The notes under the pieces: generated by a model | Told to the model about the DNA's origin: nothing | Database searches by the model: none | The model's input: only the letters and a program-made list of their open reading frames with translations | Shown: one piece after another, positions 24,439 through 61,461 of the stretch | Position numbering within the stretch: position 1 is the stretch's first letter | Layout of the letters: each line of letters begins with the position of its first letter | Program-made: the position numbers and the translations under genes | DNA from: Escherichia coli 042 | GTDB lineage: Bacteria; Pseudomonadota; Gammaproteobacteria; Enterobacterales; Enterobacteriaceae | Length of the DNA: 64,000 nucleotides | NCBI RefSeq assembly: GCF_000027125.1 | Contig: NC_017626.1 | Direction: 5' to 3' (one strand)

Positions 24439-26219
<1,781 letters not shown>

Positions 26220-26223
<4 letters not shown>

Positions 26224-28900: not shown

Positions 28901-29053
28901 TATCATCTACATATCACAACGTGCGTGGAGGCCATCAAACCACGTCAAATAATCAATTATGACGCAGGTATCGTATTAATTGATCTGCATCAACTTAACG
29001 TAAAAACAACTTCAGACAATACAAATCAGCGACACTGAATACGGGGCAACCTC

Positions 29054-29287
29054 ATGTCAACGAAGAACAGAACCCGCAGAACAACAACCCGCAACATCCG
29101 CTTTCCTAACCAAATGATTGAACAAATTAACATCGCTCTTGAGCAAAAAGGGTCCGGGAATTTCTCAGCCTGGGTCATTGAAGCCTGCCGCCGGAGACTG
29201 TGCTCAGAAAAAAGAGTTTCTTCTGAAGCAAACAAAGAAAAGAGTGACATTACTGAATTGCTCAGAAAACAGGTCAGACCAGATTGA
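29054..29287 (+). CDS. hypothetical 77-aa protein, possible ribbon-helix-helix DNA-binding fold
   Basis: ORF with basic N-terminus (MSTKNRTRRTTTRNIRFPNQMIEQINIALEQKGSG...) about 200 bp beyond cos. Confidence 0.4.
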   Translation: MSTKNRTRRTTTRNIRFPNQMIEQINIALEQKGSGNFSAWVIEACRRRLCSEKRVSSEANKEKSDITELLRKQVRPD

Positions 29288-29344
29288 AGCAATTTAGATA
29301 ATCGTGCAGACTACGCCCCCTCATATCACATGGAAGGTTTATCT

Positions 29345-29755
29345 ATGGATCAGGTAGTCATTTTTAAACAAATATTTGATAAAGTTCGAAACGATTTAAA
29401 CTATCAATGGTTTTATTCTGAGCTAAAACGTCACAATGTCTCACATTACATTTACTATTTAGCCACAGAGAATGTTCATATTGTATTAAAAAATGATAAT
29501 ACAGTGTTATTAAAGGGCCTAAAAAACATTGTGTCTGTCAAATTTTCAAAGGATAGGCATCTTATAGAAACGACCTCTAATAAGCTGAAATCCAGAGAGA
29601 TCACATTTCAGGAATACAGAAGAAACCTTGCTAAAGCAGGAGTTTTTCGGTGGGTTACAAATATCCACGAACAAAAAAGATATTACTATACCTTTGATAA
29701 TTCATTACTATTTACTGAAAGCATCCAGAAAACTACACAGATCTTACCACGCTAA
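29345..29755 (+). CDS. ydfO: DUF1398-family prophage protein YdfO
   Basis: ORF 29330..29755; start chosen at [11 protein letters not shown]... for ~136 aa; synteny with Qin ydfO-gnsB. Confidence 0.7.
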
Positions 29756-29906
29756 ACCATAACGTCCGGCTTCTCTCACTCCTGAGCCGGACTGCATTGG
29801 TTTAATAAAAACCATCAACAATTGTGATTTAGATATTCGGAACCATTCAAATATAACAAAACCCCGTAAAAACGAGGTTTATGGATAAATTTTATTATTG
29901 AATACA

Positions 29907-30083
29907 TCAGATTAAATTAATCTTGACATCATAGCTTTCAAGACCCGTCATTTTTTCCCGTGCGGTAAACTGAATACTGGTAACTTCTTTCCCGGTCTTT
30001 TTCTTAAGTTCAATAATTTTTTTTGTTATATATTCAGAAATATCTGCTTCTGCTTTTGTTTTTAAGTTTTCAATATTCATCAT
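29907..30083 (-). CDS. gnsB: Gns-family protein (GnsB-like), 58 aa
   Basis: Manual translation MMNIENLKTKAEADISEYITKKIIELKKKTGKEVTSIQFTAREKMTGLESYDVKINLI; below ORF-track cutoff. Confidence 0.7.
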   Translation of the reverse strand: MMNIENLKTKAEADISEYITKKIIELKKKTGKEVTSIQFTAREKMTGLESYDVKINLI

Positions 30084-30251
30084 TTCCTCTTTTAGTCTGT
30101 TATGACTTTCCAGTTACACAGTAAGTCGATTATATGGTGCAAACGTGTAAAAGATAAGATGAAACATCGCAATAATCAACATACGATAGTCTAAATTTTA
30201 CACAAACAGACAAAGAGAATTTTCCTGAATTATCAATGCAATAGCATCAAA

Positions 30252-30482
30252 TTAACTCAAGAGCCTTATTGCTGCTTCCAGAATTTCTTCTGAAGTAACA
30301 TGTCGATCCGCGGCTACATAAATGACTTTATGATCTCCGGTCAGAGATGGAAACCCTGCGGCCATTACAGTAAGGTGTGTTTTTTCGCCATTTGGATATT
30401 CACGCATGATGGTGTTAACTCCAGTCATCGCTGGCACTACCACTGCTGGTTCAGAGTTAAAAAAAACTATGATTTTTTTCAT
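30252..30482 (-). CDS. ynfN: small prophage protein, YnfN-like (start uncertain; 51-76 aa)
   Basis: ORF 30252..30524; position between gnsB and cspI as in Qin; internal Met starts would give 51 or 76 aa. Confidence 0.45.
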   Translation of the reverse strand: MKKIIVFFNSEPAVVVPAMTGVNTIMREYPNGEKTHLTVMAAGFPSLTGDHKVIYVAADRHVTSEEILEAAIRLLS

Positions 30483-30753
30483 GATGTTACCGTAGTATGT
30501 GAGTATCCATCGAATAGACACCAAGCAAAAAAGCTCCCGAAGGAGCCTTCATTTTCACTTTTTTAAATCCAACGACAGACGGCTGGCATTTAAGTATTGT
30601 GAAATATTATCAAATGTAATCATCATTGATTTACAAAAGATACATTTTGCCCCGAAAGGATTCATGTCAGAAACATCAAAAGATGATGTTCTATACTGGG
30701 AACCATGACAACACGGGCATCTAAAGTGAATATGGTTTGTAATATTGTCTACC

Positions 30754-30966
30754 TCAAAGCGCCACTACATGAACAGCGGCAGGACCTTTAGGTCCGTTCT
30801 CAATACCAAATTCAACTTCCTGATTCTCAGTTAATGTTTTGAAATCGTTGCTCTGAATTGCTGAGAAATGGACAAACACATCTTTGCTGCCATCTTTCGG
30901 CGTGATGAAACCAAAACCTTTTTCAGGGTTAAACCATTTCACTAAACCAGTCATTGTGTTAGACAT
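30754..30966 (-). CDS. cspI: cold-shock protein CspI
   Basis: 70-aa CSD protein [38 protein letters not shown]... Confidence 0.9.
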
Positions 30967-31328
30967 AATTATTACCTTTTGAAGAAATTAGCCCTTGGGC
31001 AGAATGGTCCGAAAAAAAATATCAGAGAGAAAAACCAACAAGGAAATCTCAAGAGGTACAAATAATAAAATTATAACAATGACTGCTTCAGATAAATTTG
31101 TAACAAACCAGAACACCATTAACGCATGATTAACCACCCATAGCAAGGATTACTTTTGTAAAGAAAAACACAGCAATGAAAGAATAGCTTTATTTATTAA
31201 TAAAACGTGTCATTCTGATTAAGACCTTTTATCTTACCCTTAAGATTTCAGGAATTTTGGCTCATGGAAGAGTCCTTTTTATTTAAATTTTACATTCCGC
31301 GATGTAAATGTTCCGATTTAATATTACC

Positions 31329-32244
<916 letters not shown>

Positions 32245-32248
<4 letters not shown>

Positions 32249-32556
32249 AGATATTTATGATGAGGACGCTCGTGCTTATTGGCAGGATTTTCAATCTTAA
32301 AGGAGTACTGATGCTGCAGATAAGACTCAACTTTTTCTGACAATTTTTCTGCTACTTCCAGGAAGACTTGCCGGACGCTCCTTCTGGCTGCTGCCTCATA
32401 AAACTCCAGCGCAGCTCCTTCAACACGGTCCATGGCGACATCTAGGTCAAAAATTTCACCGTCAAAGCGTTCTTTGTCCTGTAAGGCTACAGTTACCGTA
32501 ACTTTATTCTCAAAATTACGGACTCCTTTCACAACCAGTTCATAGTCTTGAGTCAT
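32245..32556 (-). CDS. ydfR: DUF1327-family prophage protein YdfR
   Basis: 103-aa ORF between holin and endolysin as in Qin. Confidence 0.75.
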
Positions 32557-32560
32557 TGGA

Positions 32561-32776
32561 TTACTCTCCTCTCGCAGCCTTACGCCTGTCTTCTTTAATC
32601 TTGAAATAAAGATTTGTCAGATACGTCAGCAGGCCAAAAACCAGGCTACCCAGCACACCGATTGCAGCCCACTGTGACGGAGTTACTTTATCGAGTAACT
32701 GCAATGCCCAGAAACCAGCATTACCCGCCGATGTGCCATAGGCAACACCTGTTGTTAACTTATCCATTGATTTCAT
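32561..32776 (-). CDS. essQ: class II holin (phage 21 S-like), dual-start MKSMDK
   Basis: ORF 32561..32851; start chosen at [28 protein letters not shown]... (71 aa) with two TM segments. Confidence 0.85.
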
Positions 32777-32995
32777 ATCCTCACCCCGATGTACACGGAT
32801 GGTGCAATATGTTTGAAAAGATCGGAGTCTACGGGGTAGTTTTGACAGCACACGTTGTTCTCAACGGCGCTAAAAAAACATACACATTAAAAATGTGGGT
32901 AATTATTTTGAAAGAAAGTCATATATAAAATAATAATACGAGAAATGTTTTCATATTTAGTGTACTGTATACGGCCATTTATACAGGAAAAGCCT

Positions 32996-33166
32996 ATGTC
33001 AGAACGTAAAAACTCAAAATCACGCCGTAATTATCTCGTTAAATGTTCCTGCCCAAACTGCACCCAAGAGTCAGAACACAGTTTTTCAAGAGTACAAAAA
33101 GGTGCCCTTTTGATCTGCCCTCATTGCAACAAAGTATTCCAGACAAATCTTAAAGCTGTAGCCTGA
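32996..33166 (+). CDS. hypothetical 56-aa zinc-ribbon protein (CPNC...CPHC)
   Basis: ORF 32945..33166; internal ATG with AGGAAA SD gives MSERKNSKSRRNYLVKCSCPNCTQESEHSFSRVQKGALLICPHCNKVFQTNLKAVA. Confidence 0.45.
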   Translation: MSERKNSKSRRNYLVKCSCPNCTQESEHSFSRVQKGALLICPHCNKVFQTNLKAVA

Positions 33167-33223
33167 TTGATTTTATTAGTAACAAGTATTTTTTATATTT
33201 TAATAATATATTTAAAGCAGATA

Positions 33224-33250
33224 ATAAAAAACCCGCCTGAGCGGGTTTGA
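33224..33250. terminator. hairpin (acccgcctgagcgggt) with flanking A/T runs; candidate bidirectional terminator or late-operon tR'
   Basis: Perfect 6-bp GC-rich stem flanked by AAAAAA upstream and T-rich sequence downstream. Confidence 0.4.
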
Positions 33251-33529
33251 GATTGTGGTGCTTTTTGTGGGAGTCATCCACTTACGCACTTTGTTTTGCC
33301 ATGCCAGCAGTTAGCTTCTGCTGTAAAACTATTCATGCAGCAAACCTGCACTTCACCACAATGGTTAGCATACTTTTCCTGATTAAGATTTTGCCAAATA
33401 TGCTAGCCATTGTTTCATGTATTGGACCTCCTTACTTTTTATTAAAGAGATCCAATATTCACTACTCTGTCCGTATCTCTACTCAGGCATCAGCCTTCTT
33501 CGTTATCGTATACAGACGAGCGATGAATT

Positions 33530-33745
33530 TTAATCAGTAATGATGACATTTGCTGCTGCAGGACCTTTAGCACCACTCTCTATAGAGAAGGTAACCTTTT
33601 GACCTTCAAATAAGGTTCGATAATTATCATTCTGAATCGCAGAAAAATGCACAAACACATCTTTACTACCATCAACAGGAGAAATAAAGCCGAAACCTTT
33701 ATCAGCGTTAAACCATTTTACTAAACCAGTCATTTTATTTGACAT
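33530..33745 (-). CDS. cspB: cold-shock protein CspB
   Basis: 71-aa CSD protein [34 protein letters not shown]... Confidence 0.9.
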
Positions 33746-34045
33746 TCTACATTCCTTAACTTGAGCCTTTCGGCATAAATGGTTTGCATAACAGAAACGA
33801 CTTCGTACTTAATTGGAGAGACTCAAAGAAGGAATAAGTGAATAACACCTGAAATGAGAACTGCTTTAGTAAACTACTTCGTATATCGTCTGTTCTTCAA
33901 ACCGACGCAATCATTAACGCATAGTTGAACATATGAAGCAATGTTTATTTTAGACATCCAGCCATCTTCAACCCCATCAAAAAACTATAGCTTTCTTCAG
34001 GAACGTGTGTATAGTGCGCCAAGTTATCAGTATTAAGGAATTTTT

Positions 34046-34258
34046 TTGTCCCGTAAAATGACAGGAATTGTCAAAACCTTTGACGGCAAAAGCGGCAAGG
34101 GTCTTATCACCCCATCCGATGGTCGTATCGATGTCCAGCTTCATGTTTCAGCGCTCAATCTCCGCGATGCAGAAGAAATTACCACCGGATTACGCGTGGA
34201 ATTTTGCCGGATAAATGGTCTGCGTGGCCCTTCAGCTGCCAATGTTTACCTTTCATGA
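34046..34258 (+). CDS. cspF: cold-shock protein CspF
   Basis: 70-aa CSD-like protein [34 protein letters not shown]... Confidence 0.85.
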
Positions 34259-34549
34259 GCTATATTAAAGCTTTAATTTCAGGCCCCATCGGATCACACA
34301 TGGAGAGTTTTTATGAATAACCCCGTCTGTCTTGATGACTGGTTGATTGGCTTTAAAAGCTTATGCTGTACTTTGGCCGTAATAGCTCTGCTAATAATAT
34401 AATAAGCAGACTCATTGTGTTTAGGGACATTGTACTGGAAGAAAACATTTTAAACATCAGGCAAATAACCAAGTCACCAGCTAAATAATAAGTTAACAGA
34501 CATGAGTCCCGGGATGAGATTCAACATTACCATTGCCCCATTTAAAGCA

Positions 34550-34580
34550 CAAAACCCGCTCATCAGCGGGTTTTCTACTT
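34550..34580. terminator. hairpin plus T-run downstream of quuQ
   Basis: aaaacccgctcatcagcgggtttt stem-loop with T-rich flanks. Confidence 0.5.
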
Positions 34581-34679
34581 TTTCTTAACGTCGGGTATAC
34601 AAAGCCCATCGTTGAAAAAATTTTATCCATATTTTTTGAAAAATGCAAACATCATGTCGCCATCTTCAGCAAAAATCAT

Positions 34680-35432
34680 TTATCTCGTCACCTTCCTCAA
34701 TTGCGCTTCCGCGTATGCTTCTTCCTGCCAGCACTTTGTTACCAGTTTACCAATGACGTCCGCATACCCCTTATACCACTGATAATCGGTCAGGTCTGGT
34801 ACCAGCTTCTGGACATGACGTCGTGCCAGCGTGGTCGGTAAACGACTAAACCGGTTTCCATTACAACGCCCACAAATCTTATATACCGGTACGCCATGAA
34901 ACCGGGTTCTTTTTTCATCCAGAACAATCCCTTTACCCTTACACCCTCTGCACGCTGTGCTGGCTTCGCCCTTACCATGGCAATGCTGACATAGTTCCTT
35001 CACCCATTCTTCCTTGATTACAGATTCCCCGCGTCTGTAGTGTTTCACCACTTCGCGCAATACATTATAAAATCCCGTACCTGAACAATGCTCACAGCGA
35101 GCCTTACTTGCCGCAGACCTGGAGTAATCAGCAAAGGCAAAACTCACGAGGTAAGGAATAATCTGTAACCGGATTTCTTCACTCAATTTGTTCAATGTCG
35201 GGTTATCCAGTGCCATCGCGTAATTTAGCAGGCCTTCAATCGCAAACTGAGGGTCCTGAACACCAACTTTTGCCAGAAATAAGGCCAACCCAAGTGGTGC
35301 TTTCGACTGCACCATCCCCTGCGCTGCCATTACATCCGTAATTGTTAAACAACCGGTGCCTGTCGCTGGAGCGTCATCGCTCAATTTTGGAGATTTTGGG
35401 GAGTAATATTTTGGTAAGGCTTCAAGGTTCAT
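34680..35432 (-). CDS. quuQ: late-gene antiterminator Q
   Basis: ORF 34680..35462; start chosen at MNLEALPKYYSPK... (250 aa); Cys-rich zinc-binding region; synteny. Confidence 0.85.
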   Translation of the reverse strand: MNLEALPKYYSPKSPKLSDDAPATGTGCLTITDVMAAQGMVQSKAPLGLALFLAKVGVQDPQFAIEGLLNYAMALDNPTLNKLSEEIRLQIIPYLVSFAFADYSRSAASKARCEHCSGTGFYNVLREVVKHYRRGESVIKEEWVKELCQHCHGKGEASTACRGCKGKGIVLDEKRTRFHGVPVYKICGRCNGNRFSRLPTTLARRHVQKLVPDLTDYQWYKGYADVIGKLVTKCWQEEAYAEAQLRKVTR

Positions 35433-35445
35433 GCTCGTTCTCCAC

Positions 35446-36534
35446 TTACGCCAGTACGCCAATTGCCAGCGCGCGATCGATAAAACGAAATATCAGCTCC
35501 AGTTGGGAGCCATACTTATCTTCAAATGCCACTGTATCCGTATGCAGCTCGTTGTGATGCTTTCTGCACAAAGGCAACACAAAGAGATCATGTGCTTTTG
35601 TTCCCATTCCGCCCTGCCCGTGACCAATCAGATGATGCGGATCGTCGGCTGGCATACCGCAGCAAGCACACGGCTGTGTCTTAACCCAACGTGTGTATTT
35701 CTCCTTAACCCAGCGGCGACGTTTAGGCAGCTTCATGAAAGATTCCGGAGACTCTGGATCAACGGTGATGCTTACCACCGTCTTTTCCTGTGGTGATTTT
35801 TGTTGCTGGTGGGCGTAAGGCAACGGTGCAAGATTTTTTGTGCGTTGTTTCAATATGCTGGTGGCGGTCTGCTCTCCCGGTACGATGTCGCTTTCGCGGT
35901 ACACCGAGCAGATTTTTTCCGCTGGTAATCCCAGCGAACGACGCGATACAGCCTCAGGTAGTGCATCCACCACCTGATTGCAGACCGCCCACCAGGATAA
36001 TTCAGCCAAAGATAATTCCCGCTCCTGCGTACCGCTTATTGCGTGACGGATGACGTCAATCACCCATGCTGTCAGATTTTGTTGAGCAAGCAGCTCCAGT
36101 GATTCCGATGTCTGGTCACGCAGTTGGTTGTCGCAGTGCCAGCACAACACCATTGCGCCGGTACCATAACGGTGAATGACTGTTTCAGTGTGATGGTAAT
36201 CGCCATTAGGCCACTGGCAGGATGTAACATGACGTAATAGCCAGTCGGACAATGCGCCAACGCCGCCAGCAGCACGAATCACCCGTTCGTTACTAAAAAA
36301 CGGCAGCAATGTTTTGTCTTCCGCCAGCGGCTGGCGAACGGCAGGAACGACTCCGGATGGCAGATTACGCATGCTTTTTGGTTCCGGTTCCACCAGCACT
36401 CGAGGATTATGAAATATCTGTATGGATTCACGGCCCGGCTTAAGGACCACCAGCCCAAGCTCAGGCACCAGAACAGGTCTAAGTAATACCCGCACGTTAC
36501 CTCCAGATCCGTTGCTGGAAAGTGCGGGACGCAC
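35446..36534 (-). CDS. ydfU: DUF968-family prophage protein YdfU
   Basis: 362-aa ORF with C-terminal HNH-like Cys/His cluster (CACCGMPADDPHHLIGHG...CRKHHNELH); synteny. Confidence 0.75.
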   Translation of the reverse strand: MRPALSSNGSGGNVRVLLRPVLVPELGLVVLKPGRESIQIFHNPRVLVEPEPKSMRNLPSGVVPAVRQPLAEDKTLLPFFSNERVIRAAGGVGALSDWLLRHVTSCQWPNGDYHHTETVIHRYGTGAMVLCWHCDNQLRDQTSESLELLAQQNLTAWVIDVIRHAISGTQERELSLAELSWWAVCNQVVDALPEAVSRRSLGLPAEKICSVYRESDIVPGEQTATSILKQRTKNLAPLPYAHQQQKSPQEKTVVSITVDPESPESFMKLPKRRRWVKEKYTRWVKTQPCACCGMPADDPHHLIGHGQGGMGTKAHDLFVLPLCRKHHNELHTDTVAFEDKYGSQLELIFRFIDRALAIGVLA

Positions 36535-36775
36535 GTGGTGGGCGTTCGGAATAAGGCAGCCTGACAGAGATTATCCAGTGCCGATAGTCGAGACTGAGAG
36601 CTTTCTTAACCTCGAACCCGCGCCTGCGGTAAGAATGAATCAGCCATTCGGCCTGTTCTGCAGTGCATGGAGGGTGCTGGAACCATTCAGACTTGAATGC
36701 GTGAGAATACCGCCCGTGCGTGCAGGCAAGAACGGGCGAATTATCAGAATTGTAATATTTTGCGTTGCGTGCCAT
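36497..36775 (-). CDS. rem: small prophage protein Rem
   Basis: 92-aa ORF; position between ydfU and hokD as in Qin; start uncertain. Confidence 0.5.
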   Translation of the reverse strand: MARNAKYYNSDNSPVLACTHGRYSHAFKSEWFQHPPCTAEQAEWLIHSYRRRGFEVKKALSLDYRHWIISVRLPYSERPPRASRTFQQRIWR

Positions 36776-36841
36776 CGGTTTTCTCCGGTGGCACGGTGTT
36801 ACTCAGCGGGAGTTCAGCCCCGCGCAAGATTGTAGATGAGT

Positions 36842-37093
36842 TTATTCTCCTGAAAAAGCAGAAAAGCCAGCTTTTATTCCGATCTCTTTCAATGCCTGTA
36901 ATGAAGTGACAAACTCACCTTCGCGCAAGATAAATCCGTCCGTGACCCGAGCATCCACAAAATTAATTAACGCAGCCCCATTCTTTCGCAAACACATAAT
37001 GCGGTAATGACTAACAAGATTTCCATTTTCAACGCACACAGCATAGAGGCCATCTTCACAAAAAATTTTACGCAGTTCTTCGATGTTCATCAT
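36842..37093 (-). CDS. hypothetical 83-aa protein
   Basis: ORF MMNIEELRKIFCEDGLYAVCVENGNLVSHYRIMCLRKNGAALINFVDARVTDGFILREGEF...; between the relBEF terminator and rem. Confidence 0.4.
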   Translation of the reverse strand: MMNIEELRKIFCEDGLYAVCVENGNLVSHYRIMCLRKNGAALINFVDARVTDGFILREGEFVTSLQALKEIGIKAGFSAFSGE

Positions 37094-37214
37094 CAGAATC
37101 CTTCCGGATAATTAGCTCTCCCCTTTAAGGGACCATCCCTCTTATCCCTGCGCGCTACTTAAGTATTTTTGATTCTATTCCGGCACCGTCCAGAACTTCA
37201 AACGCGTTGAAAAT

Positions 37215-37245
37215 AAAAACAAAAACCCGCCGAAGCGGGTTAAGT
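37215..37245 (-). terminator. rho-independent terminator of the relB-relE-hokD operon
   Basis: Minus-strand hairpin aacccgcttcggcgggtt followed by TTTGTTTTTATTTTC. Confidence 0.6.
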
Positions 37246-37309
37246 GCGGGTGCGTTGAGGATGCCTGCCACATCAGAGGTGGCGAGGGATTTCTCCCCCG
37301 CCGGGTCTC

Positions 37310-37465
37310 TTACTCCTCAGGTTCGTAAGCTGTGAAGACAGCGACCTCCGTCTGGCCGGTTCGGATTCGTACCTCGCAGAGGTCTTTCCTCGTTACCAGT
37401 GCCGTCACTATGACGGTTAAACAGATGACGATCAGGGCGATTAACATCGCCTTTTGCTGCTTCAT
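37310..37465 (-). CDS. hokD: type I toxin HokD (RelF), 51 aa
   Basis: Manual translation MKQQKAMLIALIVICLTVIVTALVTRKDLCEVRIRTGQTEVAVFTAYEPEE; below ORF-track cutoff. Confidence 0.85.
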   Translation of the reverse strand: MKQQKAMLIALIVICLTVIVTALVTRKDLCEVRIRTGQTEVAVFTAYEPEE

Positions 37466-37536
37466 AGCCTGCTTCTCCTGTCAACGCAAAGCAGAAGTGT
37501 CACCTTCGGTGCGAAACAGAGATGTCATGCTTTGGT

Positions 37537-37824
37537 TCAGAGAATGCGTTTGACCGCCTCGCTATATACTTCCGAGCGTTCTCTTTTCCCAACAGAAATC
37601 ACGAAAACGACAACTTTCTCGTCTATAACCTGGTATACAAGGCGATAGCCTGAAGACCGGAGCTTAATCTTGTAACAATCAGGCATACCACGGAGCTTGT
37701 TTGCTTCAATCCGGGGTGACTCAAGTACTTCAACCAGCTTCTTTTTCAACTGTTCACGTACCGTCGAGCCCAGCTTTCGCCATTCCTTTAGTGCCCGCTC
37801 GTCAAAATCCAGAAAATACGCCAT
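37537..37824 (-). CDS. relE: type II toxin RelE (mRNA interferase)
   Basis: 95-aa ORF MAYFLDFDERALKEWRKLGSTVREQLKKKL... Confidence 0.9.
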   Translation of the reverse strand: MAYFLDFDERALKEWRKLGSTVREQLKKKLVEVLESPRIEANKLRGMPDCYKIKLRSSGYRLVYQVIDEKVVVFVISVGKRERSEVYSEAVKRIL

Positions 37825-38063
37825 CAGAGTTCATCCAGCGTCACACGTACTGGCTTAGGATTACGAAGCCGTTCTTTCACTATCTCCACAAGTTCAGCAT
37901 CTTCATCACTCAGGAGTGTCTGTTTGAACGGCAAGCGTTCATTGTCAGCGATATACTCGAGCATGAGACGAAGCGCTTCAGAAGGAGTTACACCCATTTT
38001 TTCAAGCGCGGCGTAAGAACGCGCTTTAAGTTCATCGTCAATACGCAGGTTAATGCTACCCAT
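37824..38063 (-). CDS. relB: type II antitoxin RelB
   Basis: 79-aa ORF MGSINLRIDDELKARSYAALEKMGVTPSEALRLML...; stop overlaps relE start. Confidence 0.9.
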   Translation of the reverse strand: MGSINLRIDDELKARSYAALEKMGVTPSEALRLMLEYIADNERLPFKQTLLSDEDAELVEIVKERLRNPKPVRVTLDEL

Positions 38064-38087
38064 GTCTTACACCTCTTGTAATTACAA

Positions 38088-38393
38088 ATGTCATTACAAG
38101 TATCGCACTACAACATGCTTAGGGCAAGTCACGAAGGAAGTCAGAAAGTAGTCGTAAGAACGGTGATCACTGTCCGCTTTGTGCCAGGAGCAGCCATTGC
38201 TAAGTCCATCCTGTATTGTGCAGGTCAGCTCGTTTTTAAAGAGTCCGGCCATCATCTTACTGGTACAGACACCATATACTTTGTGACGGTCAGGCTACAT
38301 ATGCACAACTCAACTTATTCATCTATTTTTTGCTTTAGCATGTCAGTGTTGCTTTCTCGTCGGCGGGTGAGCGGTGACCTGACCTGTCGATAA
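38088..38393 (+). CDS. ydfV: possible YdfV-like ORF (101 aa), weakly supported
   Basis: Length and position between relB and flxA match K-12 ydfV; composition not strongly protein-like. Confidence 0.3.
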   Translation: MSLQVSHYNMLRASHEGSQKVVVRTVITVRFVPGAAIAKSILYCAGQLVFKESGHHLTGTDTIYFVTVRLHMHNSTYSSIFCFSMSVLLSRRRVSGDLTCR

Positions 38394-38595
38394 AGGAACG
38401 TAACACGTTTTATGCAACACCCGCATGCGGCAGAAAATTATTGCCGAACGTTTACCCCTGTCAACAAGCTTTACTTTCTGAGGCGCGCCAGCCCGCGAGG
38501 AAAACAATCTGAACATCAAACAATTAATGACACAAGAAATACGATTAAAGATTTTTTTGTGCATGCCGATAGTGCTTTTTTAAAAGGAGAAATCT

Positions 38596-38928
38596 ATGTC
38601 TGTCACAATTCAGGGAAATACCTCAACCGTTATTTCAAACAACTCCGCCCCGGAAGGAACATCAGAAATAGCCAAAATCACAAGACAAATTCAGGTGCTG
38701 ACTGAAAAGCTTGGGAAAATCTCATCGTAAGAGGGGATGACGACACAGCAGAAAAAAGAAATGGCTGCATTGGTACAGAAGCAAATTGAAAGCCTCTGGG
38801 CTCAACTGGAGCAGTTGTTAAGGCAGCAGGCAGAGAAAAAGAATGAAGACGCGACAGTTCAGCCTGATAAAAAAGAAGAGAAAAAAGACGATACAAATAC
38901 CGCTGGCACCATTGATATTTACGTCTAA
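38596..38928 (+). pseudogene. flxA: FlxA-like protein interrupted by in-frame TAA at codon 45
   Basis: MSVTIQGNTSTVISNNSAPEGTSEIAKITRQIQVLTEKLGKISS, stop, EG, then ORF-track 38737..38928 MTTQQKKEMAALVQ... in the same frame. Confidence 0.7.
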
Positions 38929-38942
38929 GTGACAGCCGTATT

Positions 38943-38968
38943 GTGGCCCTCATCGGGCCACTTTTCGC
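38943..38968 (+). terminator. hairpin plus T-run after flxA
   Basis: tggccctcatcgggcca stem followed by CTTTTCG. Confidence 0.5.
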
Positions 38969-39299
38969 CATCAGCCTTTTCTTTAAAGACATATTATCTT
39001 TGTATCATTTCTGATAGTTAACATTACAAGATATAAGTAATGGACGCACTCCCAATTAGTCTATTTAAATCGCCACGAGTTTAACTGACAACCCATGATC
39101 AATTATGAATTGCAACTATTTCTGTAGTCACTTTTGTGGGGACAGTCCACAAAACTGCCAACTTCCGCTTCTTGCTCTTAGCGGACATTAGCATAGGCTA
39201 TTTACCATAACGCCTCATTACGCGCACCGCCCAGACTGACTCAGCGCGTTTCTGGCATATCCCCGGTAAAACAAGTAACAAACCACCCGAAAATGAACA

Positions 39300-40760
39300 C
39301 CAGAAACGCGACTTAAGAATCTACCCTATGAATGGATATGCACTCAACCGAATCGATCTTGGTTTCAATCTTTTTTATCGGGATCAGGCTTCTTTTTAGG
39401 TAACTTCGGGGGCTTAACTTGCTGATGACTTTGCGTTCGGCGCGTAAGCCAGGGATGGTCAGCTTTAGGTTTAACATAGTATTTTGAGCGTAAATCAATA
39501 CGGGCATTATCCACTCGTTCATGGACACTCTTTTCATCATCCAGTGGTATAGGCTCCGGGCCATCAACATACTTTTCCCAGCCCAGCGCTTTCCCGTCAT
39601 ACAGAACGTTAATTTCACCGTCAAAGTTCTCGCATACAGTAACAACCGAATGCCTAAGTCGATATCCCCGGCCCTCACTGCGTACCTGAAACGCACTGCT
39701 TTTGTACTGGAAAGTGAGATTTTTAGACAGAACGCGCTTCGCCTGTAGGCTGAAGATATAACCCAGTTCCTCTTCAGAATGGTGCACATCAAGATGAGCA
39801 TTATCAGTAGTACGAGGCGACGTAGCGAACCGGTTGTTATAGGCTTCAATAAAGGTCGGCAACCATGCATTTGCTGTTTCAATATCACTGATATTCTGAA
39901 GCCGCATTTCTTTGACCAGCCTGTCCTGTAGTGTCTGATTGGCGCGCTCTACCCGCCCTTTTGCCTGCGGGCTGTTGGCATGGATTGGCTCGATGCCCAG
40001 TGTCTTTATCGCACGAGTGAACTGGGTCAGCTCACCTTCCCGCTCTGGGTTATTTACCCTGAATATACTGTGTCTATCAGAGTAGAGAGCGAGCGGTACG
40101 CCATGATCATTAAGGTAACCCCGGAGGGTTTCCATGTAAGCCCGGGTTGTTTCAGCAGGCACAAAACGCAACGCCATCAACGCACTGGTGGCATCATCAA
40201 TGAAAACGATCAGTGTACATCTGGGGCCTCGATTTTCAAACCAGTCATGAGGTGAGCCATCAATCTGGATCAGTTCACCGTAAGATGGTCGTCGCATGCG
40301 GCGTTGATATATACGGGCAATTTTACGACGGCGTTCACGCCATAACCCCTCTTCTACCATCCACTTTCTGAGAGTTTCAACGGATAAAGATAAACCGTGT
40401 ATCTCGCGCAATTTTTCGCACGCAAACGTAGGTCCAAAATCAGCGTAACGGCCTTTGAGGAGTGAAATTACTGTTGCTCTGAATTCAGTAGAAAAGGAAT
40501 TATTAGGACGCTTTCCACGTCGGTGGGAAACCAGACCAGAAGGCCCTTCATTTCTATACCGTTGCACCAGACGTTTAACCTGCCGAATAGAAATGCCAAT
40601 GCGTGCCGCAGCTTGTTCCTGAATAATCTGAAGTCGGTGGAGTTCCTTATGACTCATCGTAACAGTCTCTTTGATCATGAAAAATCCCCCAGAGAATTGT
40701 CTGGGGACATTTTAGAATGGTTCAAAGGGGACATTACAGCTTGGTGTTAACAATAGCCTG
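39300..40760. mobile_element. insertion sequence (boundaries approximate) carrying a DDE transposase
   Basis: Single 437-aa transposase gene in a ~1.45 kb block that interrupts prophage gene order between flxA and the replication genes; terminal inverted repeats not resolved by eye. Confidence 0.5.
39365..40678 (-). CDS. DDE (rve-fold) transposase with N-terminal HTH, IS481/ISNCY-like
   Basis: 437-aa ORF MIKETVTMSHKELHRLQIIQEQAAARIGISIRQVKRLVQRYRNEG... with integrase-core-like region. Confidence 0.8.
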   Translation of the reverse strand: MIKETVTMSHKELHRLQIIQEQAAARIGISIRQVKRLVQRYRNEGPSGLVSHRRGKRPNNSFSTEFRATVISLLKGRYADFGPTFACEKLREIHGLSLSVETLRKWMVEEGLWRERRRKIARIYQRRMRRPSYGELIQIDGSPHDWFENRGPRCTLIVFIDDATSALMALRFVPAETTRAYMETLRGYLNDHGVPLALYSDRHSIFRVNNPEREGELTQFTRAIKTLGIEPIHANSPQAKGRVERANQTLQDRLVKEMRLQNISDIETANAWLPTFIEAYNNRFATSPRTTDNAHLDVHHSEEELGYIFSLQAKRVLSKNLTFQYKSSAFQVRSEGRGYRLRHSVVTVCENFDGEINVLYDGKALGWEKYVDGPEPIPLDDEKSVHERVDNARIDLRSKYYVKPKADHPWLTRRTQSHQQVKPPKLPKKKPDPDKKD

Positions 40761-41012
40761 CTTCTCCGTGCCTTTCGGCACGTAAGAGGCTAACCTACAT
40801 GTGTCTAGCATGAAATTGGCCTCAGATTAATGTTAAGCGTCTTGCAGGACGCGTAATGTTAACTGGGGCTTTTCTCTATCTGCCGTTGGTGTCCATGCCC
40901 GAGGCAGATAGCCTCAAGCACCCGCAGTCATTCTACTTAACTAAGATTTCCCCGCAAACCGTTTTTGTCCAGCACAGTAAATATCCAACTAAACCAATGG
41001 AGTTCGCTGTAT

Positions 41013-41231
41013 TTACCGCCAGTATTCAATGCACATGACCGCCATGAACACCCCTAAAAAAAGGGCATTTATATATCCAAATATTAATATCAAAACATCA
41101 ACTTTTTCCATATACCTTGCTGTGAAGATGATGGGCATACATGATGCGAACAACCAGAACGCAACAAACAAAAACTGCAATGCGTTTTTCATTATTCCTC
41201 CTACAATCAATGTGCAATTACATTTAAACAC
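41013..41231 (-). CDS. hypothetical small membrane protein (two predicted TM helices)
   Basis: 72-aa ORF ...MKNALQFLFVAFWLFASCMPIIFTARYMEKVDVLILIFGYINALFLGVFMAVMCIEYWR. Confidence 0.35.
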   Translation of the reverse strand: MFKCNCTLIVGGIMKNALQFLFVAFWLFASCMPIIFTARYMEKVDVLILIFGYINALFLGVFMAVMCIEYWR

Positions 41232-42344
41232 ACCTCAATTTGGCCGGACATATAAATATCTAAACCAGAAAAAATCACTTACATAGCGTTACAAACTCTT
41301 TAGTCTAAAGGTTCATCGTAAAACATTCCCCATACTTATCAGTCCGTTCCGCGCCAGGTAGCTCATTGCCTTATCTGGCAACCTGTAATCAGGTTTCCGC
41401 TTTTTCAGTTGGCTGGTCGTTTAACCGACATAGTTAATCCATTAATCTAGTTGCCGGATGTTGGTGGATTTTCGCGTTTTAGTTGTTCATAAAAGTGCAC
41501 AGCTTTAACCAGTTCTTCTGATGTAACTGGGACTGGTGAGGCAGTGAATAAGGCCTGAATTTGATAGTTCGGCCTGTCGTTACAATCCTCTTTTTTCGGT
41601 ACATATTTCCAGTCACCAGACCACTACTTCCCCTGAAAGTCCGTAACGCCTTTTTTCACGTAGCGATATCGCCATGCCACTGGTTTTGCTTGCCCCGCCG
41701 TTTCATGCCCTTCCTGATAATTAATCTCGCTCATTCATCGCCCCACTCATCACAATATGCTTCGACCGGAGTTTTTCCCGCTTCATAGTCATCACGCTAG
41801 GATTCGACATCAGCAGCACTTCCACCGCGTAACTCACCATAGTCCATTAATAGTTCATCCCGCTCTTCAAAACTGATGTTATATTTAGCTGAACAAAAAT
41901 CAGCCACTTTGTTCTTCCTCATCGTCTTTTATTTCGTGGTATGAGTAATTGCAGTAGTTAAAGAAAATTTCTTATGCTCCGTCATGAATTTCCTCAGGTG
42001 TTGCGTCATCGTCCACTTCGAATACATCCTCAAAATCTCCACCAGCTATTCCCGTTTCAATAATAATTTTGAACTTTCGCATTTCACTACCGCCCTTTCG
42101 GGCGGCCTCCTGATGTTCTGAGGGTGCAGAAATCCATCCGGTTAAGGATTAAATTTTATTTACAGAACTGAATTTAATTATTCAGATATACGTATCTGTA
42201 GCCTTACGAATCTACTCACTGGATGCCTCTTTCATAAAAATAATCCAGTGGGTTTTATCGTTTTTTCCCTGTTCGTTGACAGATAACAGGTTTTCTGTCT
42301 GTCAGTGCCAGAATCTGGCTTACCGGTATTTGCGTTTCATTCCA

Positions 42345-42701
42345 TTAAAAAATCAGAACGCCGTGCGGCCTCAACACCCGAAAGGCTTCTTTAAATCTCT
42401 GTCGCGAATCATCACGCCAGGCATCTTTATTCAGCCGTCCATATTTCTTTCCCATCCAGGCGTTATCACCAACACTCTCAAGATGCGGAGGGTCTAATAC
42501 AACCATCGAAAAAGATGCGTCTGCAAATGATAATGCACGAAAATCTGCGATAATGTCAGGGCTGATAATCAAGCGTCTCCCATTGCGTAATGTGTATCCT
42601 TCTTTTCTGATATCGCTGAATATCGCCCGTTCGTCAGACTTATCGAACCAGAACATGCGGCTGCCACAGCACATATCAAGAATGGTTGCCGGTGCACTCA
42701 C
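42345..42701 (-). pseudogene. SAM-dependent DNA methyltransferase-like ORF, apparently truncated (118 aa)
   Basis: Motif I-like DMCCGSRMFWFD and motif IV-like VVLDPPH; ends at TAA after ...HGVLIF, frame continues protein-like (WNETQIPVSQILALTDRKPVICQRTGKKR). Confidence 0.45.
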
Positions 42702-43120
42702 TGCGCCACGTCCTGAAAATTACCCTGATAGAAAGCCAGTATGCGCTGCATAACTTCGCTCTTCCGGCACTCGCGACAGATTATGTTTAGGCGACTGTCG
42801 TAGCGACGTATTTCTCCGTCAGGTGATGACCAGATAAGGTCCGGATCAACCACAGCAGGTTTCTTCACCTTTGCCCTCGAGAGTTTTTTGCGGGCGTTTT
42901 GCCAGTCCTTACGCGCCTGTTCAGAGGGGAATAACCCGTAGCCGGAGTTGTATACATCGCCACTGGCTACCAGCTCTCTGGCAAGAACGCTCATCAGATA
43001 TCTAGTCGCACCTGTTTTAGCTTCCAGTTGCCGTAACGTCTCACGGCCGCTCTGGCGCACGAGTTCCACCACCTGCCATTTAATTTTTTCCCGCTCTTCT
43101 TGTGTAAAAACTTTTGCCAC
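42698..43120 (-). CDS. hypothetical prophage early protein (140 aa)
   Basis: ORF in the replication module downstream of the initiator gene; start overlaps methyltransferase-like ORF. Confidence 0.5.
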   Translation of the reverse strand: MAKVFTQEEREKIKWQVVELVRQSGRETLRQLEAKTGATRYLMSVLARELVASGDVYNSGYGLFPSEQARKDWQNARKKLSRAKVKKPAVVDPDLIWSSPDGEIRRYDSRLNIICRECRKSEVMQRILAFYQGNFQDVAQ

Positions 43121-43160
43121 AAGTCCCCCTTAAAATTACCTCATGACCTGAAATCAACAC

Positions 43161-44180
43161 TTATCCTCTGAAACCAGGCGGAATTTCTGTATCCGGTTCA
43201 GAAATATGATTAACACAACGCTGTACAGGTGAACGTCCCAGGCGGATGACCAGTTCGTCCCATTTTTCGCGGAGCTTTGACGGGCTCATGATGTTTTTGA
43301 CCCAGAATGGATCTCGCTGAACCCGACCAAACATTTCGCAAATTTGTCTGTGGCTTCTGCCATCCAGCATCCGCATTGTGCGCACGTCATTGGCCCAGGC
43401 AGTCCAGTTAGGCTCTTTTGGTCGCATGATCTCGCCATCATCACTGGCTGCCTGTTCGTAGAGACCCACGATCCGCCCCCAGATCCACTGCGCACACGCC
43501 AAATCCTCCCTGCTACCCCACTGGCGTTTTTTCGCACTAAACACAACCGCGTCGGAGTTCCGGGTTAAAAAATCCTGTTCAGTCGTCTGCGGGTCCGGTT
43601 GCGAAGCTTCCGGACGAAAAGTGTTTTTATTCTCTGTAGTAGTCTCTGTTGTATTCTCTGTAAGATCATCAGGCCATTTTGACCCGATGACATTGGGTCG
43701 TTTTGAACCAATGGAGCGTTTCATTTTGACCTCTTCCATCGTGTCATTTTGACCTGATGGAGCGGCGCATTTTGAACCGATGGATTCGCTCAATTTGCCA
43801 CCATCTAAAAGCTCGCTCCCATAGTTGATCGTGTAGAAATTGGTCATATCGCGCTTTGATTTATTGAGCTTTTCACAACGCAAAAGCCCCAGCGTTTTCA
43901 GACTTGCAAACGCGCGCTTTAACGTTGACTCTGACCAGAATGGGAACTGTTCCAGCCATTGTTCCGTTGTGTTATAAATCCAGCGAACACCATCACATTC
44001 CATGCCGGAGTTGGTATCTCTCAACCAGTAGTGCAGTTGTTGCAAAACAATGGCTTCGTTTAAGCCAATTTTCATTGCCAGCTGCGTGTTTATAACCAGT
44101 GGGCGTTCAGCAAAAAGAAGGCTCATAATTCCATCCAGCTTTTTGTTGGTATTGCTGTCGATACGCAAGTTTGAAAGCAA
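43161..44180 (-). CDS. putative phage replication initiator (lambda O position) with internal iteron origin
   Basis: 339-aa ORF at the position of lambda O relative to the Cro-like gene; contains a block of direct repeats inside the coding sequence. Confidence 0.55.
   Translation of the reverse strand: MLSNLRIDSNTNKKLDGIMSLLFAERPLVINTQLAMKIGLNEAIVLQQLHYWLRDTNSGMECDGVRWIYNTTEQWLEQFPFWSESTLKRAFASLKTLGLLRCEKLNKSKRDMTNFYTINYGSELLDGGKLSESIGSKCAAPSGQNDTMEEVKMKRSIGSKRPNVIGSKWPDDLTENTTETTTENKNTFRPEASQPDPQTTEQDFLTRNSDAVVFSAKKRQWGSREDLACAQWIWGRIVGLYEQAASDDGEIMRPKEPNWTAWANDVRTMRMLDGRSHRQICEMFGRVQRDPFWVKNIMSPSKLREKWDELVIRLGRSPVQRCVNHISEPDTEIPPGFRG
43675..43790. repeat. putative replication origin: ~5 direct repeats (iterons) of cattttga(a/c)c...atgga, period ~23 bp
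   Basis: Repeats cattttgacccgatgacattgggtcg / ttttgaaccaatggagcg / cattttgacctcttccatcg / cattttgacctgatggagcgg / cattttgaaccgatggattcg inside the initiator gene. Confidence 0.5.
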
Positions 44181-44628
44181 TTGCTTTTTCTATAAGTTCG
44201 TCAGTTTCACGATCCACTACGGCAGGATCAGCAAAAAGCAGTCCGGACTCCACCACATCGCCATATTCTTTGTTTAACCCGGCGATCATGCACGTGATGC
44301 TTTTTCCGTCAGTAATTTCACGATACAACCTGAAATCATTAATCCGGATAGCCTCCATAATTGCAGGCACTAGCGCCGTGAACTTTTCACGCTTATCCCT
44401 GGTGTCGATAGCCTTCCAGCGTTCAAATATCTTCACTCGATTAACGCCAAGCGCTCGCTGATCAATCGCGCCACCTTCATATGTGACACGCTGAACATCG
44501 ATGTTCGGGCGCTCTTTCAAAGCCCAGAATGCTTCAGTGATTAATATCGTCGCCTGCTCCTGTGTCATTCCTGGTCGACATATCCAGGCATCCAGAGCCT
44601 CACGAGCCTGTTCAGGAGTGATTTTCAT
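44107..44628 (-). CDS. YdaT-like prophage regulatory protein (cII position)
   Basis: 173-aa ORF directly downstream of the Cro-like dicC; pattern ...IFERWKAIDTRDKREKFTALVPAIMEAI... resembles YdaT-family proteins. Confidence 0.45.
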   Translation of the reverse strand: MKITPEQAREALDAWICRPGMTQEQATILITEAFWALKERPNIDVQRVTYEGGAIDQRALGVNRVKIFERWKAIDTRDKREKFTALVPAIMEAIRINDFRLYREITDGKSITCMIAGLNKEYGDVVESGLLFADPAVVDRETDELIEKAIAFKLAYRQQYQQKAGWNYEPSFC

Positions 44629-44842
44629 TGTTCAACCGCCCCGCCCGCTTCGTCTTACGATATTCATCATAAACTTTGGGATCATACTGAAGCTCCCCGC
44701 CAGATGCCTCCTGTAGACGCATCGCGCGACCTTCGGGAACTAAATCCCCTTTCCAGCTATAAAGCGAAGCCAAACGAATACCTGCTGCTTGTGCAAGTTT
44801 TGTTTTTGAACCGAAATACAAAAGAGCGTCAGTTTTAAGCAT
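44612..44842 (-). CDS. dicC: Cro-like regulator DicC
   Basis: 76-aa ORF MLKTDALLYFGSKTKLAQAAGIRLASLYSWKGD... divergent from dicA. Confidence 0.85.
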   Translation of the reverse strand: MLKTDALLYFGSKTKLAQAAGIRLASLYSWKGDLVPEGRAMRLQEASGGELQYDPKVYDEYRKTKRAGRLNNENHS

Positions 44843-44925
44843 TTAAAACACCTTTATTGTTAGCCATAACTAACAAGATAGATGTTAACAAAAACATAGT
44901 CAATACGATTTAGCATTAGCTAACT
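44843..44925. promoter_or_regulatory. dicA-dicC divergent promoter/operator region
   Basis: Intergenic region with palindromic operator-like elements (tgttagccataactaaca; ttagcattagctaa). Confidence 0.55.
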
Positions 44926-45333
44926 ATGGAAACAAAAAATTTAACTATCGGCGAACGCATCAGGTATCGTCGGAAAAACCTCAAACACACCCAAAGGTCT
45001 CTTGCTAAAGCCCTGAAAATCTCCCATGTGTCTGTATCACAATGGGAACGGGGTGATAGTGAACCTACAGGGAAGAACCTTTTTGCCCTCAGCAAAGTAT
45101 TGCAATGCTCACCAACATGGATTCTATTTGGCGATGAAGACAAGCAACCAACACCACCTGTTGAGAAGCCAGTTGCCTTATCCCCCAAAGAACTAGAGCT
45201 CCTTGAGCTGTTTAATGCACTGCCAGAATCAGAACAGGATACCCAGCTCGCCGAAATGCGAGCTCGAGTAAAAAACTTCAATAAACTCTTTGAAGAATTA
45301 CTAAAAGCCCGTCAGCGGACAAATAAAAGATAA
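44926..45333 (+). CDS. dicA: XRE-family repressor DicA
   Basis: 135-aa ORF METKNLTIGERIRYRRKNLKHTQRSLAKALKISHVSVSQWERG... (HTH). Confidence 0.9.
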   Translation: METKNLTIGERIRYRRKNLKHTQRSLAKALKISHVSVSQWERGDSEPTGKNLFALSKVLQCSPTWILFGDEDKQPTPPVEKPVALSPKELELLELFNALPESEQDTQLAEMRARVKNFNKLFEELLKARQRTNKR

Positions 45334-45499: not shown

Positions 45500-45655
45500 A
45501 TGGATACTATCGATCTTGGCAACAACGAATCTCTGGTGTACGGCGTGTTTCCAAACCAGGACGGCACGTTCACCGCAATGACGTATACCAAAAGCAAAAC
45601 GTTTAAAACCGAAAATGGTGCCCGTCGCTGGCTGGAAAGAAACTCAGGTGAGTGA
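45500..45655 (+). CDS. ydfA: small protein YdfA (51 aa)
   Basis: Internal start MDTIDLGNNESLVYGVFPNQDG... within ORF 45422..45655. Confidence 0.8.
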   Translation: MDTIDLGNNESLVYGVFPNQDGTFTAMTYTKSKTFKTENGARRWLERNSGE

Positions 45656-45656
45656 T

Positions 45657-45785
45657 ATGGATTTCGACACAATCATGGAAAAGGCTTACGAAGAATACTT
45701 CGAAGGCCTTGCCGAAGGCGAAGAAGCTCTCAGCTTCAGTGAGTTTAAACAGGCGCTTTCCAGTTCGGCAAAATCTAACGGCTGA
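45657..45785 (+). CDS. ydfB: small protein YdfB (42 aa)
   Basis: Manual translation MDFDTIMEKAYEEYFEGLAEGEEALSFSEFKQALSSSAKSNG; below ORF-track cutoff. Confidence 0.75.
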   Translation: MDFDTIMEKAYEEYFEGLAEGEEALSFSEFKQALSSSAKSNG

Positions 45786-45814
45786 TAAGCGAAACAGCAC
45801 CGCGAGGAATCAGT

Positions 45815-46033
45815 ATGCAGAAACGAGAACCCGTCATCATCGCGCCAGACTATACCGATGATGAACTTTATGAGTGGATGCGCCAGAAAATTAATGCAGC
45901 GCAGGATCTGAAATGGGCTAATGAAGCCAGGGCTAAGCAGGCTGAAAATCTGTCCGCTCTGGAGCAGGATATCACCAATCTGGAAAAAGCAGCGGCATTA
46001 AGCATTGCCAGAATGATTACATACCCGCGTTAG
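45815..46033 (+). CDS. ydfC: small protein YdfC (72 aa)
   Basis: ORF MQKREPVIIAPDYTDDELYEWMRQKINAAQDLKW... Confidence 0.8.
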   Translation: MQKREPVIIAPDYTDDELYEWMRQKINAAQDLKWANEARAKQAENLSALEQDITNLEKAAALSIARMITYPR

Positions 46034-46373
46034 TAGCTAATCAACAAAGCTAAGGTTAGTAATTAAGGAGTTCTCCACGGGTGAGGTGGAGTGCGTGCGC
46101 CGGACACGGGTGCGCATCCGGAACTGACAGTTTACTGAAAGGATATTTCCCTGAAAAGTCAGACCATAACGCGAAAGCGCACGGCGAGGTAGCTGGTTCA
46201 TAGATAGCCTGTCGTTAAATTTTCGTCGACCGTGCGCTTCCGGTTGTGGCAACCCGCGAAATGGCGCGGCGGTAAGTATGGCGGGGTTATTCCTTCCCCG
46301 TTGAGGACACCGGGTTGTCAGGTTGACCATACGCTTAAGTGACAACCCCGCTGCAACGCCCTCTGTTATCAAT

Positions 46374-46432
46374 TTTCTGGTGACGTTTGGCGGTATCAGT
46401 TTTACTCCGTGACTGCTCTGCCGCCCTTTTTA
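46374..46432 (+). ncRNA. dicF: DicF small regulatory RNA (cell-division inhibitor, ftsZ antisense)
   Basis: tttctggtgacgtttggcggtatcagttttactccgtgactgctctgccgccc followed by TTTTT; matches DicF as I remember it; lies between ydfC and dicB. Confidence 0.8.
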
Positions 46433-46600
46433 AAGTGAATTTTGTGATGTGGTGAATGCGGCTGAGCGCACGCGGAACAGTTAAAACCAAAAACAGTGTT
46501 ATGGGTGGATTCTCTGTATCCGGCGTTAATTGTTAACTGGTTAACGTCACCTGGAGGCACCAGGCACTGCATCACAAAATTCATTGTTGAGGACGCGATA

Positions 46601-46789
46601 ATGAAAACGTTATTACCAAACGTTAATACGTCTGAAGGTTGTTTTGAAATTGGTGTCACTATCAGTAACCCAGTATTTACTGAAGATGCCATTAACAAGA
46701 GAAAACAAGAACGGGAGCTATTAAATAAAATATGCATTGTTTCAATGCTGGCTCGTTTACGTCTGATGCCAAAAGGATGTGCACAATGA
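46601..46789 (+). CDS. dicB: cell-division inhibitor DicB (62 aa)
   Basis: Internal start MKTLLPNVNTSEGCFEIGVTISNPVF... within ORF 46496..46789. Confidence 0.85.
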   Translation: MKTLLPNVNTSEGCFEIGVTISNPVFTEDAINKRKQERELLNKICIVSMLARLRLMPKGCAQ

Positions 46790-46977
46790 ATTCAGCATTT
46801 GTGCTTGTTCTGACAGTTTTTCTTGTTTCCGGAGAGCCAGTTGATATTGCAGTCAGTGTTCACAGGACAATGCAGGAGTGTATGACTGCAGCAACCGAAC
46901 AGAAAATTCCCGGTAACTGTTACCCGGTCGATAAAGTTATTCACCAGGATAATATCGAAATCCCGGCAGGTCTTTAA
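46786..46977 (+). CDS. ydfD: small lysis-associated protein YdfD (63 aa)
   Basis: Start MNSAFVLVLTVFLVSGEPV... overlapping dicB stop; hydrophobic N-terminus. Confidence 0.8.
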   Translation: MNSAFVLVLTVFLVSGEPVDIAVSVHRTMQECMTAATEQKIPGNCYPVDKVIHQDNIEIPAGL

Positions 46978-47069
46978 AACAGTTCCGTAATAAATATCCG
47001 GTTTCATTCTTATATGCCAGCAATGGCAGGGATTTGTTCATCCTTAAATCTGTCATGAGGTTAAAACAA

Positions 47070-51199: not shown

Positions 51200-51310
51200 T
51201 TAACACGCATGACTCTTGAAATCCATAAATTCAAGCGCAGTGCCCAGCCATCCCGATACTGCTGCTTTCACCAAATCCTTAGTGCTTCTTTCGTGTTTTT
51301 CTATTGTCAT
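51200..51310 (-). pseudogene. ydfJ: N-terminal fragment of ydfJ (first ~34 codons) displaced by the prophage
   Basis: Minus-strand translation MTIEKHERSTKDLVKAAVSGWLGTALEFMDF then KSHAC-stop; MDF repeats at the other junction. Confidence 0.8.
51218..51228. repeat. prophage attachment-site core, right junction (GAAATCCATAA)
   Basis: Identical to 3615..3625. Confidence 0.6.
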
Positions 51311-51367
51311 AATGGTTATCTCTAAAAAAGAGGTAAGATGCGTACTACTTACTCGCCGTTATTGGTA

Positions 51368-52387: not shown

Positions 52388-52398
52388 TATCTTACTCC

Positions 52399-53613: not shown

Positions 53614-53818
53614 GTTCGATTCCTTGCATCGCTTGTCGTGATGCATGAAATCTACGCAACTGAGCTACTACCATACAAGTATGAAAATCGAAAAAAGCCG
53701 GAGTGATCACAAAAAAAGGCGTATATTTGCGCCGTGAATGGTTGACAAAAGATGAAATAGAATACCTTTTGTCAGCTGACACTTCCTTGTATCTTATTGA
53801 TAAAATGGATTTATGTCC

Positions 53819-54145: not shown

Positions 54146-54279
54146 CTTTGTCACTTATTGACATCATGTATAGTTATAGGACGACATAATATCATCAATA
54201 TAAACATCCTCCTGGTACGTTTTGCGTTCGCAGTGGATGGTGTAGAATCACCTTTAATCATTCATACAGGGAATGAATT

Positions 54280-54621: not shown

Positions 54622-54655
54622 CCTGTTATTGATTTAAGGAATGTAAGGACACGTT

Positions 54656-55216: not shown

Positions 55217-55218
55217 CA

Positions 55219-61451: not shown

Positions 61452-61461
61452 GGAGTAGCCC

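Follow-up and report, generated by a model that had tools for sequence, protein, structure and literature searches.

The window analysed here, a stretch of 64,000 nucleotides of Escherichia coli 042 DNA, carries a Qin-type lambdoid prophage inserted between ydfJ and rspB, and within this prophage lies flxA, interrupted by an in-frame stop. The left flank of the prophage is formed by ydfI, ydfJ, pinQ and tfaQ and the right flank by rspBA, ynfA-C, speG and ynfEFGH. Between these flanks are found tail, head, lysis, cold-shock, ydfT/U, rem, hokD, relBE, ydfV, flxA, ISNCY element, dicC/dicA, dicB, exo, xis and int genes. The ydfJ/rspB integration site, together with the mapped set of Qin genes (nohA, cspI/B/F, essD, ydfT/U, rem, hokD, relBE, flxA and dicABC), places the element in the Qin type. 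The gene itself had been taken for flxA in a sequence-only reading of the window, and this assignment holds, as 332 of its 333 bases match both K-12 and E. coli W and the neighbours are the same. The order relB-relE-ydfV-flxA-ydfW is kept and the DNA is near-identical to that of K-12 (1 mismatch in the 701 bp at flxA, and 3 over ∼7 kb leftwards, up to a K-12 deletion breakpoint at 39550), as expected of the orthologue of K-12 flxA. The features of the locus are as follows.

38546..38573, + strand: FliA (sigma-28) promoter of flxA, TAAAGATT-N11-GCCGATAG(T), matching the K-12 FliA motif
38584..38589, + strand: Shine-Dalgarno sequence AAGGAG of flxA, 6 nt before the ATG, read from the sequence
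38596..38730, + strand: flxA 5' fragment, codons 1-44 and the premature TAA, from the translation and the ORF list
38728..38730, + strand: nonsense codon TAA (GAA, Glu45, in K-12 and W), mutated base 38728, from the comparison with K-12 and W
38737..38928, + strand: flxA 3' fragment, from Met48 to the native stop, normally codons 48-110, from the translation and the ORF list
38943..38965, + strand: terminator-like hairpin GTGGCCC-TCATC-GGGCCAC followed by TTTT, from direct folding

The sequence, its translation and the list of open reading frames agree that the ATG at 38596 opens a frame of 44 codons, encoding MSVTIQGNTSTVISNNSAPEGTSEIAKITRQIQVLTEKLGKISS, which ends at the TAA at 38728-38730. 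Beyond this stop the reading frame stays open through GAG GGG (E G) to an ATG at 38737, from which a frame of 63 codons, starting MTTQQKKEMAALVQ and ending IDIYV, runs to the TAA at 38926-38928. This is the layout that the sequence-only reading had described, and its statement that the pieces add up to the FlxA length of about 110 residues was also correct: 44 codons, the stop, 2 codons and 63 codons give 110, the length of K-12 FlxA (333-bp CDS, WP_001301033.1). When positions 38400-39100 are compared with K-12 MG1655 without gaps, base by base, there is one difference, a T in the window against a G in K-12 at 38728, by which GAA (Glu45) becomes TAA; GAA is the original codon that had been guessed. 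The comparison with E. coli W gives the same single G-to-T change within the gene.

K-12 flxA (b1566, in the Qin cryptic prophage) is thus like the gene in the window in its promoter, Shine-Dalgarno sequence, terminator, neighbours (relB, relE and ydfV upstream, ydfW downstream) and position between ydfJ and rspB. It differs in having GAA at codon 45, whereas the TAA in the window bars synthesis of the 110-residue protein. Because of this in-frame TAA, which breaks the 110-codon frame, we file the flxA of the window as a pseudogene and not as a working member of its family. Judged by these alignments, the locus is a one-substitution nonsense allele of a known gene, and a chance pattern of open reading frames is discounted.

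Recoding or read-through of the stop at codon 45 was considered and rejected, the sequence bearing no sign of recoding; E. coli terminates efficiently at a TAA that precedes a G. The possibility of a recoded or engineered genome, Syn61 for instance, was likewise rejected, since the serine codons TCA and TCG adjoin the stop and natural isolates, as well as a metagenome, carry the allele. On the opposite strand, a mechanical ORF of 104 residues (38678-38992, −) runs antisense to flxA; it is annotated in neither K-12 nor W and is probably spurious.

The signals for expression of flxA are preserved. The sequence at 38546-38573, TAAAGATTTTTTTGTGCATGCCGATAGT, does not differ from the motif that FliA binds at flxA in K-12, at a ChIP-seq site, and has the form of the class 3-type promoters of the FliA regulon (TAAAGTTT-N11-GCCGATAA-like). 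The dependence on FliA is known from K-12, for which Fitzgerald et al. 2014 (PMC4183435) list a 28-nt FliA motif at flxA and give RNA levels of 280 in the wild type vs 2 when fliA is deleted. A second study (PMC1935009) reported that flxA expression falls 28-fold in a sigma-F deletion. The duplex of the AAGGAG with the 3' end of the 16S rRNA has a calculated energy of −8.7 kcal/mol, among the strongest 1% of + strand ATGs in the window. Downstream of the gene, the hairpin has a 7-bp GC-rich stem (−15.6 kcal/mol, z = −2.8) and is the same as in K-12; with only 4 T in its tail, it went unreported in a scan for consensus terminators. Promoter, Shine-Dalgarno sequence and hairpin are all free of differences from K-12, and it is therefore most likely that flxA mRNA is still made. 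Between ydfV and flxA there is also a strong match to the sigma-70 consensus (TTGACA-16-AATAAT, 11/12, at 38464-38437 on the − strand), which points antisense into ydfV, towards relBE; it is a consensus match only.

When the joined flxA translation is compared with the Pfam FlxA model (PF14282), it reaches 53.6 bits (E 2.7e-14) across positions 2-96 of the 101 in the profile, well over the gathering threshold of 26.3 bits, so that the conceptual read-through product belongs to the FlxA-like family. Each of the two pieces matches this model, the first in its N-terminal part and the second in its C-terminal part. The 44-residue product alone scores 17.4 bits, under this cutoff, and the 63-residue C-terminal ORF alone scores 27.8 bits over positions 42-96, above it. 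An NCBIfam search with intact FlxA gave no matching model. In a single-sequence AlphaFold model of the intact protein (mean pLDDT 71, with block means of 86-96 for residues 21-80), FlxA is predicted to form a helical hairpin, made of a helix at residues 20-44, a loop at 45-49 and a second helix at 50-85. According to this model the stop falls at the inter-helix loop. The 44-residue fragment would thus consist of a disordered N-terminus and helix 1 (residues 20-44), and the 63-residue fragment of helix 2 (residues 50-85) and the C-terminal tail. The stop deprives the product of helix 2 and the tail, which make up ∼60% of the FlxA protein and most of the Pfam domain.

A break located exactly in a predicted loop raises the idea that the gene is split rather than dead. 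According to this idea, translation would stop at 38728-38730 and restart at the ATG at 38737, and the helix-1 peptide of 44 residues and the helix-2 peptide of 63 residues would reassemble into a working hairpin, as a natural split-protein allele. The restart codon lies only 6 nt past the stop and is preceded by a Shine-Dalgarno-like run, GAGGGG, whose pairing with the anti-Shine-Dalgarno sequence (−7.0 kcal/mol) falls in the top 2.7% of + strand ATGs in the window; in addition, the 63-residue ORF passes the Pfam cutoff by itself. However, this run abuts the ATG, leaving a spacing of 0-2 nt, where 5-9 nt is usual. Furthermore, GAGGGGATG is present in wild-type flxA as well and therefore did not evolve for a restart, and the allele is confined to one lineage, as a random lesion would be. 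We consider a working split gene highly improbable.

The flxA region (701 bp, 38400-39100) is present in 1,203 of 5,426 complete RefSeq E. coli genomes, as found by megablast, and flxA is accordingly an accessory gene, missing from 78% of complete E. coli genomes. The matches are annotated as 'flxA: FlxA-like family protein' and the best of them is 99.9% identical; no match at 100% identity to the 701-bp query was found among the 5,426 genomes. With an 81-bp query centred on codon 45, every full-length match, in ∼1,195 complete genomes, is 98.8% identical and has one mismatch, and the T at 38728 is absent from these ∼1,195 flxA-holding complete RefSeq genomes. An exact 40-mer with the T allele had 0 matches in the GTDB species representatives, which is expected of a collection with only one genome per species.

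The two fragments are on public record: the exact 44-residue and 63-residue products both occur in a collection of 15 billion proteins. The former is found on 64 contigs, with some NCBI accessions named 'protein FlxA, partial', and the latter has been annotated as a separate gene by gene callers on public contigs. One record of a '44-aa FlxA' (L009) was rejected as a carrier of the allele, since it has the wild-type G and is merely truncated by the end of its contig; the figure of 64 contigs therefore overstates the frequency of the allele. At base level, where the check covered 5 of the 24 longest contigs carrying the 44-residue product, TAA at codon 45 was found in five or more assemblies of independent origin (two complete NCTC chromosomes, two drafts and one metagenome scaffold), which differ from the window by 0-33 mismatches per ∼20 kb:

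LR134238.1, NCTC chromosome: 0 mismatches and 13 gap openings vs the window
LR134246.1, NCTC chromosome: 0 mismatches and 11 gap openings vs the window
GCA_036599265.1, draft: 1 mismatch in 20,135 bp vs the window
GCA_036600635.1, draft: 2 mismatches in 17,373 bp vs the window
ERZ28598688, ENA metagenome scaffold: 33 mismatches, of which 31 fall within a single block at 45.5-47.9 kb

These assemblies bear directly on the concern that the T at 38728 is a sequencing or assembly error and that the true codon is GAA. A difference of a single base, absent from every complete RefSeq E. coli genome, would fit such an error. Yet five assemblies of different projects and kinds share the TAA on a near-identical haplotype, and the two NCTC records differ from the window by indels only, with no substitutions. 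The presence of TAA in five assemblies of near-identical background therefore indicates an allele common to a lineage and not a read error, and the error explanation, to which we leave next to no probability, is effectively refuted. No sense codon was seen at 38728..38730 in independent data from this lineage, all five assemblies reading TAA; GAA at codon 45 is found only in other lineages. No complete RefSeq E. coli genome matches the chromosomal flank at 51.2-64 kb with more than 99.2% identity, which explains why the lineage, and the allele with it, are missing from that set.

In the metagenome scaffold, which shares the TAA of flxA, the block of mismatches corresponds to positions 45553-47903 of the window, 2.4 kb from ydfA to the start of exo, and it looks like a recombined patch within the prophage. 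The prophage core (29000-45000) has ∼99.9% identity to K-12 and W, as against at most 99.2% to any complete RefSeq E. coli for the 51200-64000 region (rspAB, ynfA-H). Compared with the backbone of its host, the prophage is therefore much better conserved or was shared much more recently.

The closest point of comparison for the state of this prophage is the near-complete Qin-type prophage of E. coli W, whose flxA is WFL_RS08830. Its architecture is like that of the window (tail, head, lysis, relBE, flxA, ISNCY element, dicAC, exo, xis and int), with 99.6% identity over 31.7-56 kb and 11 differences in 30-45 kb. None of flxA, W, H and rrrQ/rzpQ is damaged in E. coli W, whereas each of the four has a lesion in the window. 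The lambda W-like head-tail joining gene (26017-26223, −) has a stop at codon 3 (MT*QEEL...), produced by a single base change at 26217 from CGA in E. coli W to TGA in the window (R3*). In the H-like tail tape-measure gene (15736-18314, −) one base pair of the E. coli W sequence is deleted at 17942/17943, and the resulting frameshift leaves overlapping ORFs of 161 residues (17829-18314) and 730 residues (15736-17928). Finally, 108 bp of the E. coli W sequence are deleted at 31722/31723, among them the rrrQ stop and the rzpQ start, after which the lysozyme (rrrQ) ORF has 182 residues instead of 177 and the Rz-like rzpQ (DUF2514) ORF is shortened. The stop in W, the frameshift in H and the deletion at rrrQ/rzpQ thus support several independent lesions in the same prophage. 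The sequence-only reading had proposed several independent inactivating point changes, citing W and H; the W substitution stands and H is indeed disrupted, but the H lesion is an indel of 1 bp and not a substitution.

Several further observations concern the same prophage. The H region includes a highly divergent, indel-rich stretch at 15.8-17.3 kb. The assemblies with the flxA TAA have the same ORF sizes at rrrQ/rzpQ (in GCA_036599265.1, a 137-residue DUF2514 protein and a 182-residue lysozyme). At 47720, a 6-bp deletion relative to E. coli W in the gene of an 823-residue exonuclease (YdfE-like) is in frame, and the frame is kept. At 39365-40678 (−) there is an intact ISNCY-type transposase-like ORF of 437 residues (HTH_28/29/32, with a faint rve_3), the last 49 codons of which are exactly K-12 'ydfW'. 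As K-12 diverges from the window at 39550, ydfW looks, on this alignment, like the C-terminal remnant of the 437-residue ORF, left by an internal deletion of the K-12 Qin prophage. On the E. coli W copy, RefSeq places an incomplete transposase and a separate ydfW.

Disruption of flxA has occurred elsewhere by other means. In strain Z1323CEC0013 (NZ_CP148427.1) the gene is disrupted by an IS1 insertion, and in the insertion variants P0018 and P0028 it is altered by insertion, whereas in the window a single nonsense substitution leaves the length unchanged. No obvious flagellar or motility function has been reported for flxA (PMC4183435, PMC1935009), the gene was still listed as uncharacterized in 2024 (PMC11551758), and it is part of a 62-gene region whose deletion in the laboratory is possible (PMC3018172).

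With these disruptions by IS elements and insertions in mind, one may ask whether the inactivation of flxA was advantageous, perhaps because it did away with a FliA-dependent product of high expression, so that selection and not drift fixed it. The strong dependence of flxA on FliA in the K-12 measurements (PMC4183435, PMC1935009) agrees with such a scenario, as does the persistence of the allele in several isolates and, in the metagenome scaffold, on a prophage haplotype with a different 45.5-47.9 kb block. Nevertheless, the promoter is intact, so the cost of transcription is not relieved; the change does not recur at this site among the ∼1,195 complete genomes; the neighbouring structural phage genes have lesions that look equally random; and no phenotype is known for the loss of flxA (PMC4183435, PMC1935009, PMC11551758). 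We therefore regard a selected loss as unlikely.

The explanation that we favour, and that is very probably correct, is that the flxA of this Qin-type prophage was inactivated by the G-to-T change at 38728, which arose once and was inherited by one E. coli lineage, with relaxed selection as the most likely reason. According to this explanation, the intact FliA-dependent promoter would cause flxA mRNA to be made whenever the flagellar regulon is on, and ribosomes would halt after residue 44, releasing the disordered N-terminus and helix 1 of the predicted two-helix hairpin. With helix 2 and the tail lost, intact FlxA would be absent and its function presumably lost as well. Selection to maintain flxA would be relaxed, the gene being accessory and dispensable and its prophage decaying through several other, independent lesions. 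We infer the continued transcription, the loss of function and the neutrality of the allele, and the flxA lesion is most simply read as part of the neutral decay of a defective prophage.

The flxA TAA allele is a pseudogene allele, both the gene and its prophage family being known, and it was already present in public records. The finding is an ordinary one, adding one more data point for the dispensability of flxA in nature. For annotation, it means that 38596-38928 should be marked as a pseudogene and not as two small genes. The allele could act as a marker of its lineage. The Qin-type prophage around it is partway through its decay, near-complete like that of E. coli W, yet already with four or more small lesions.
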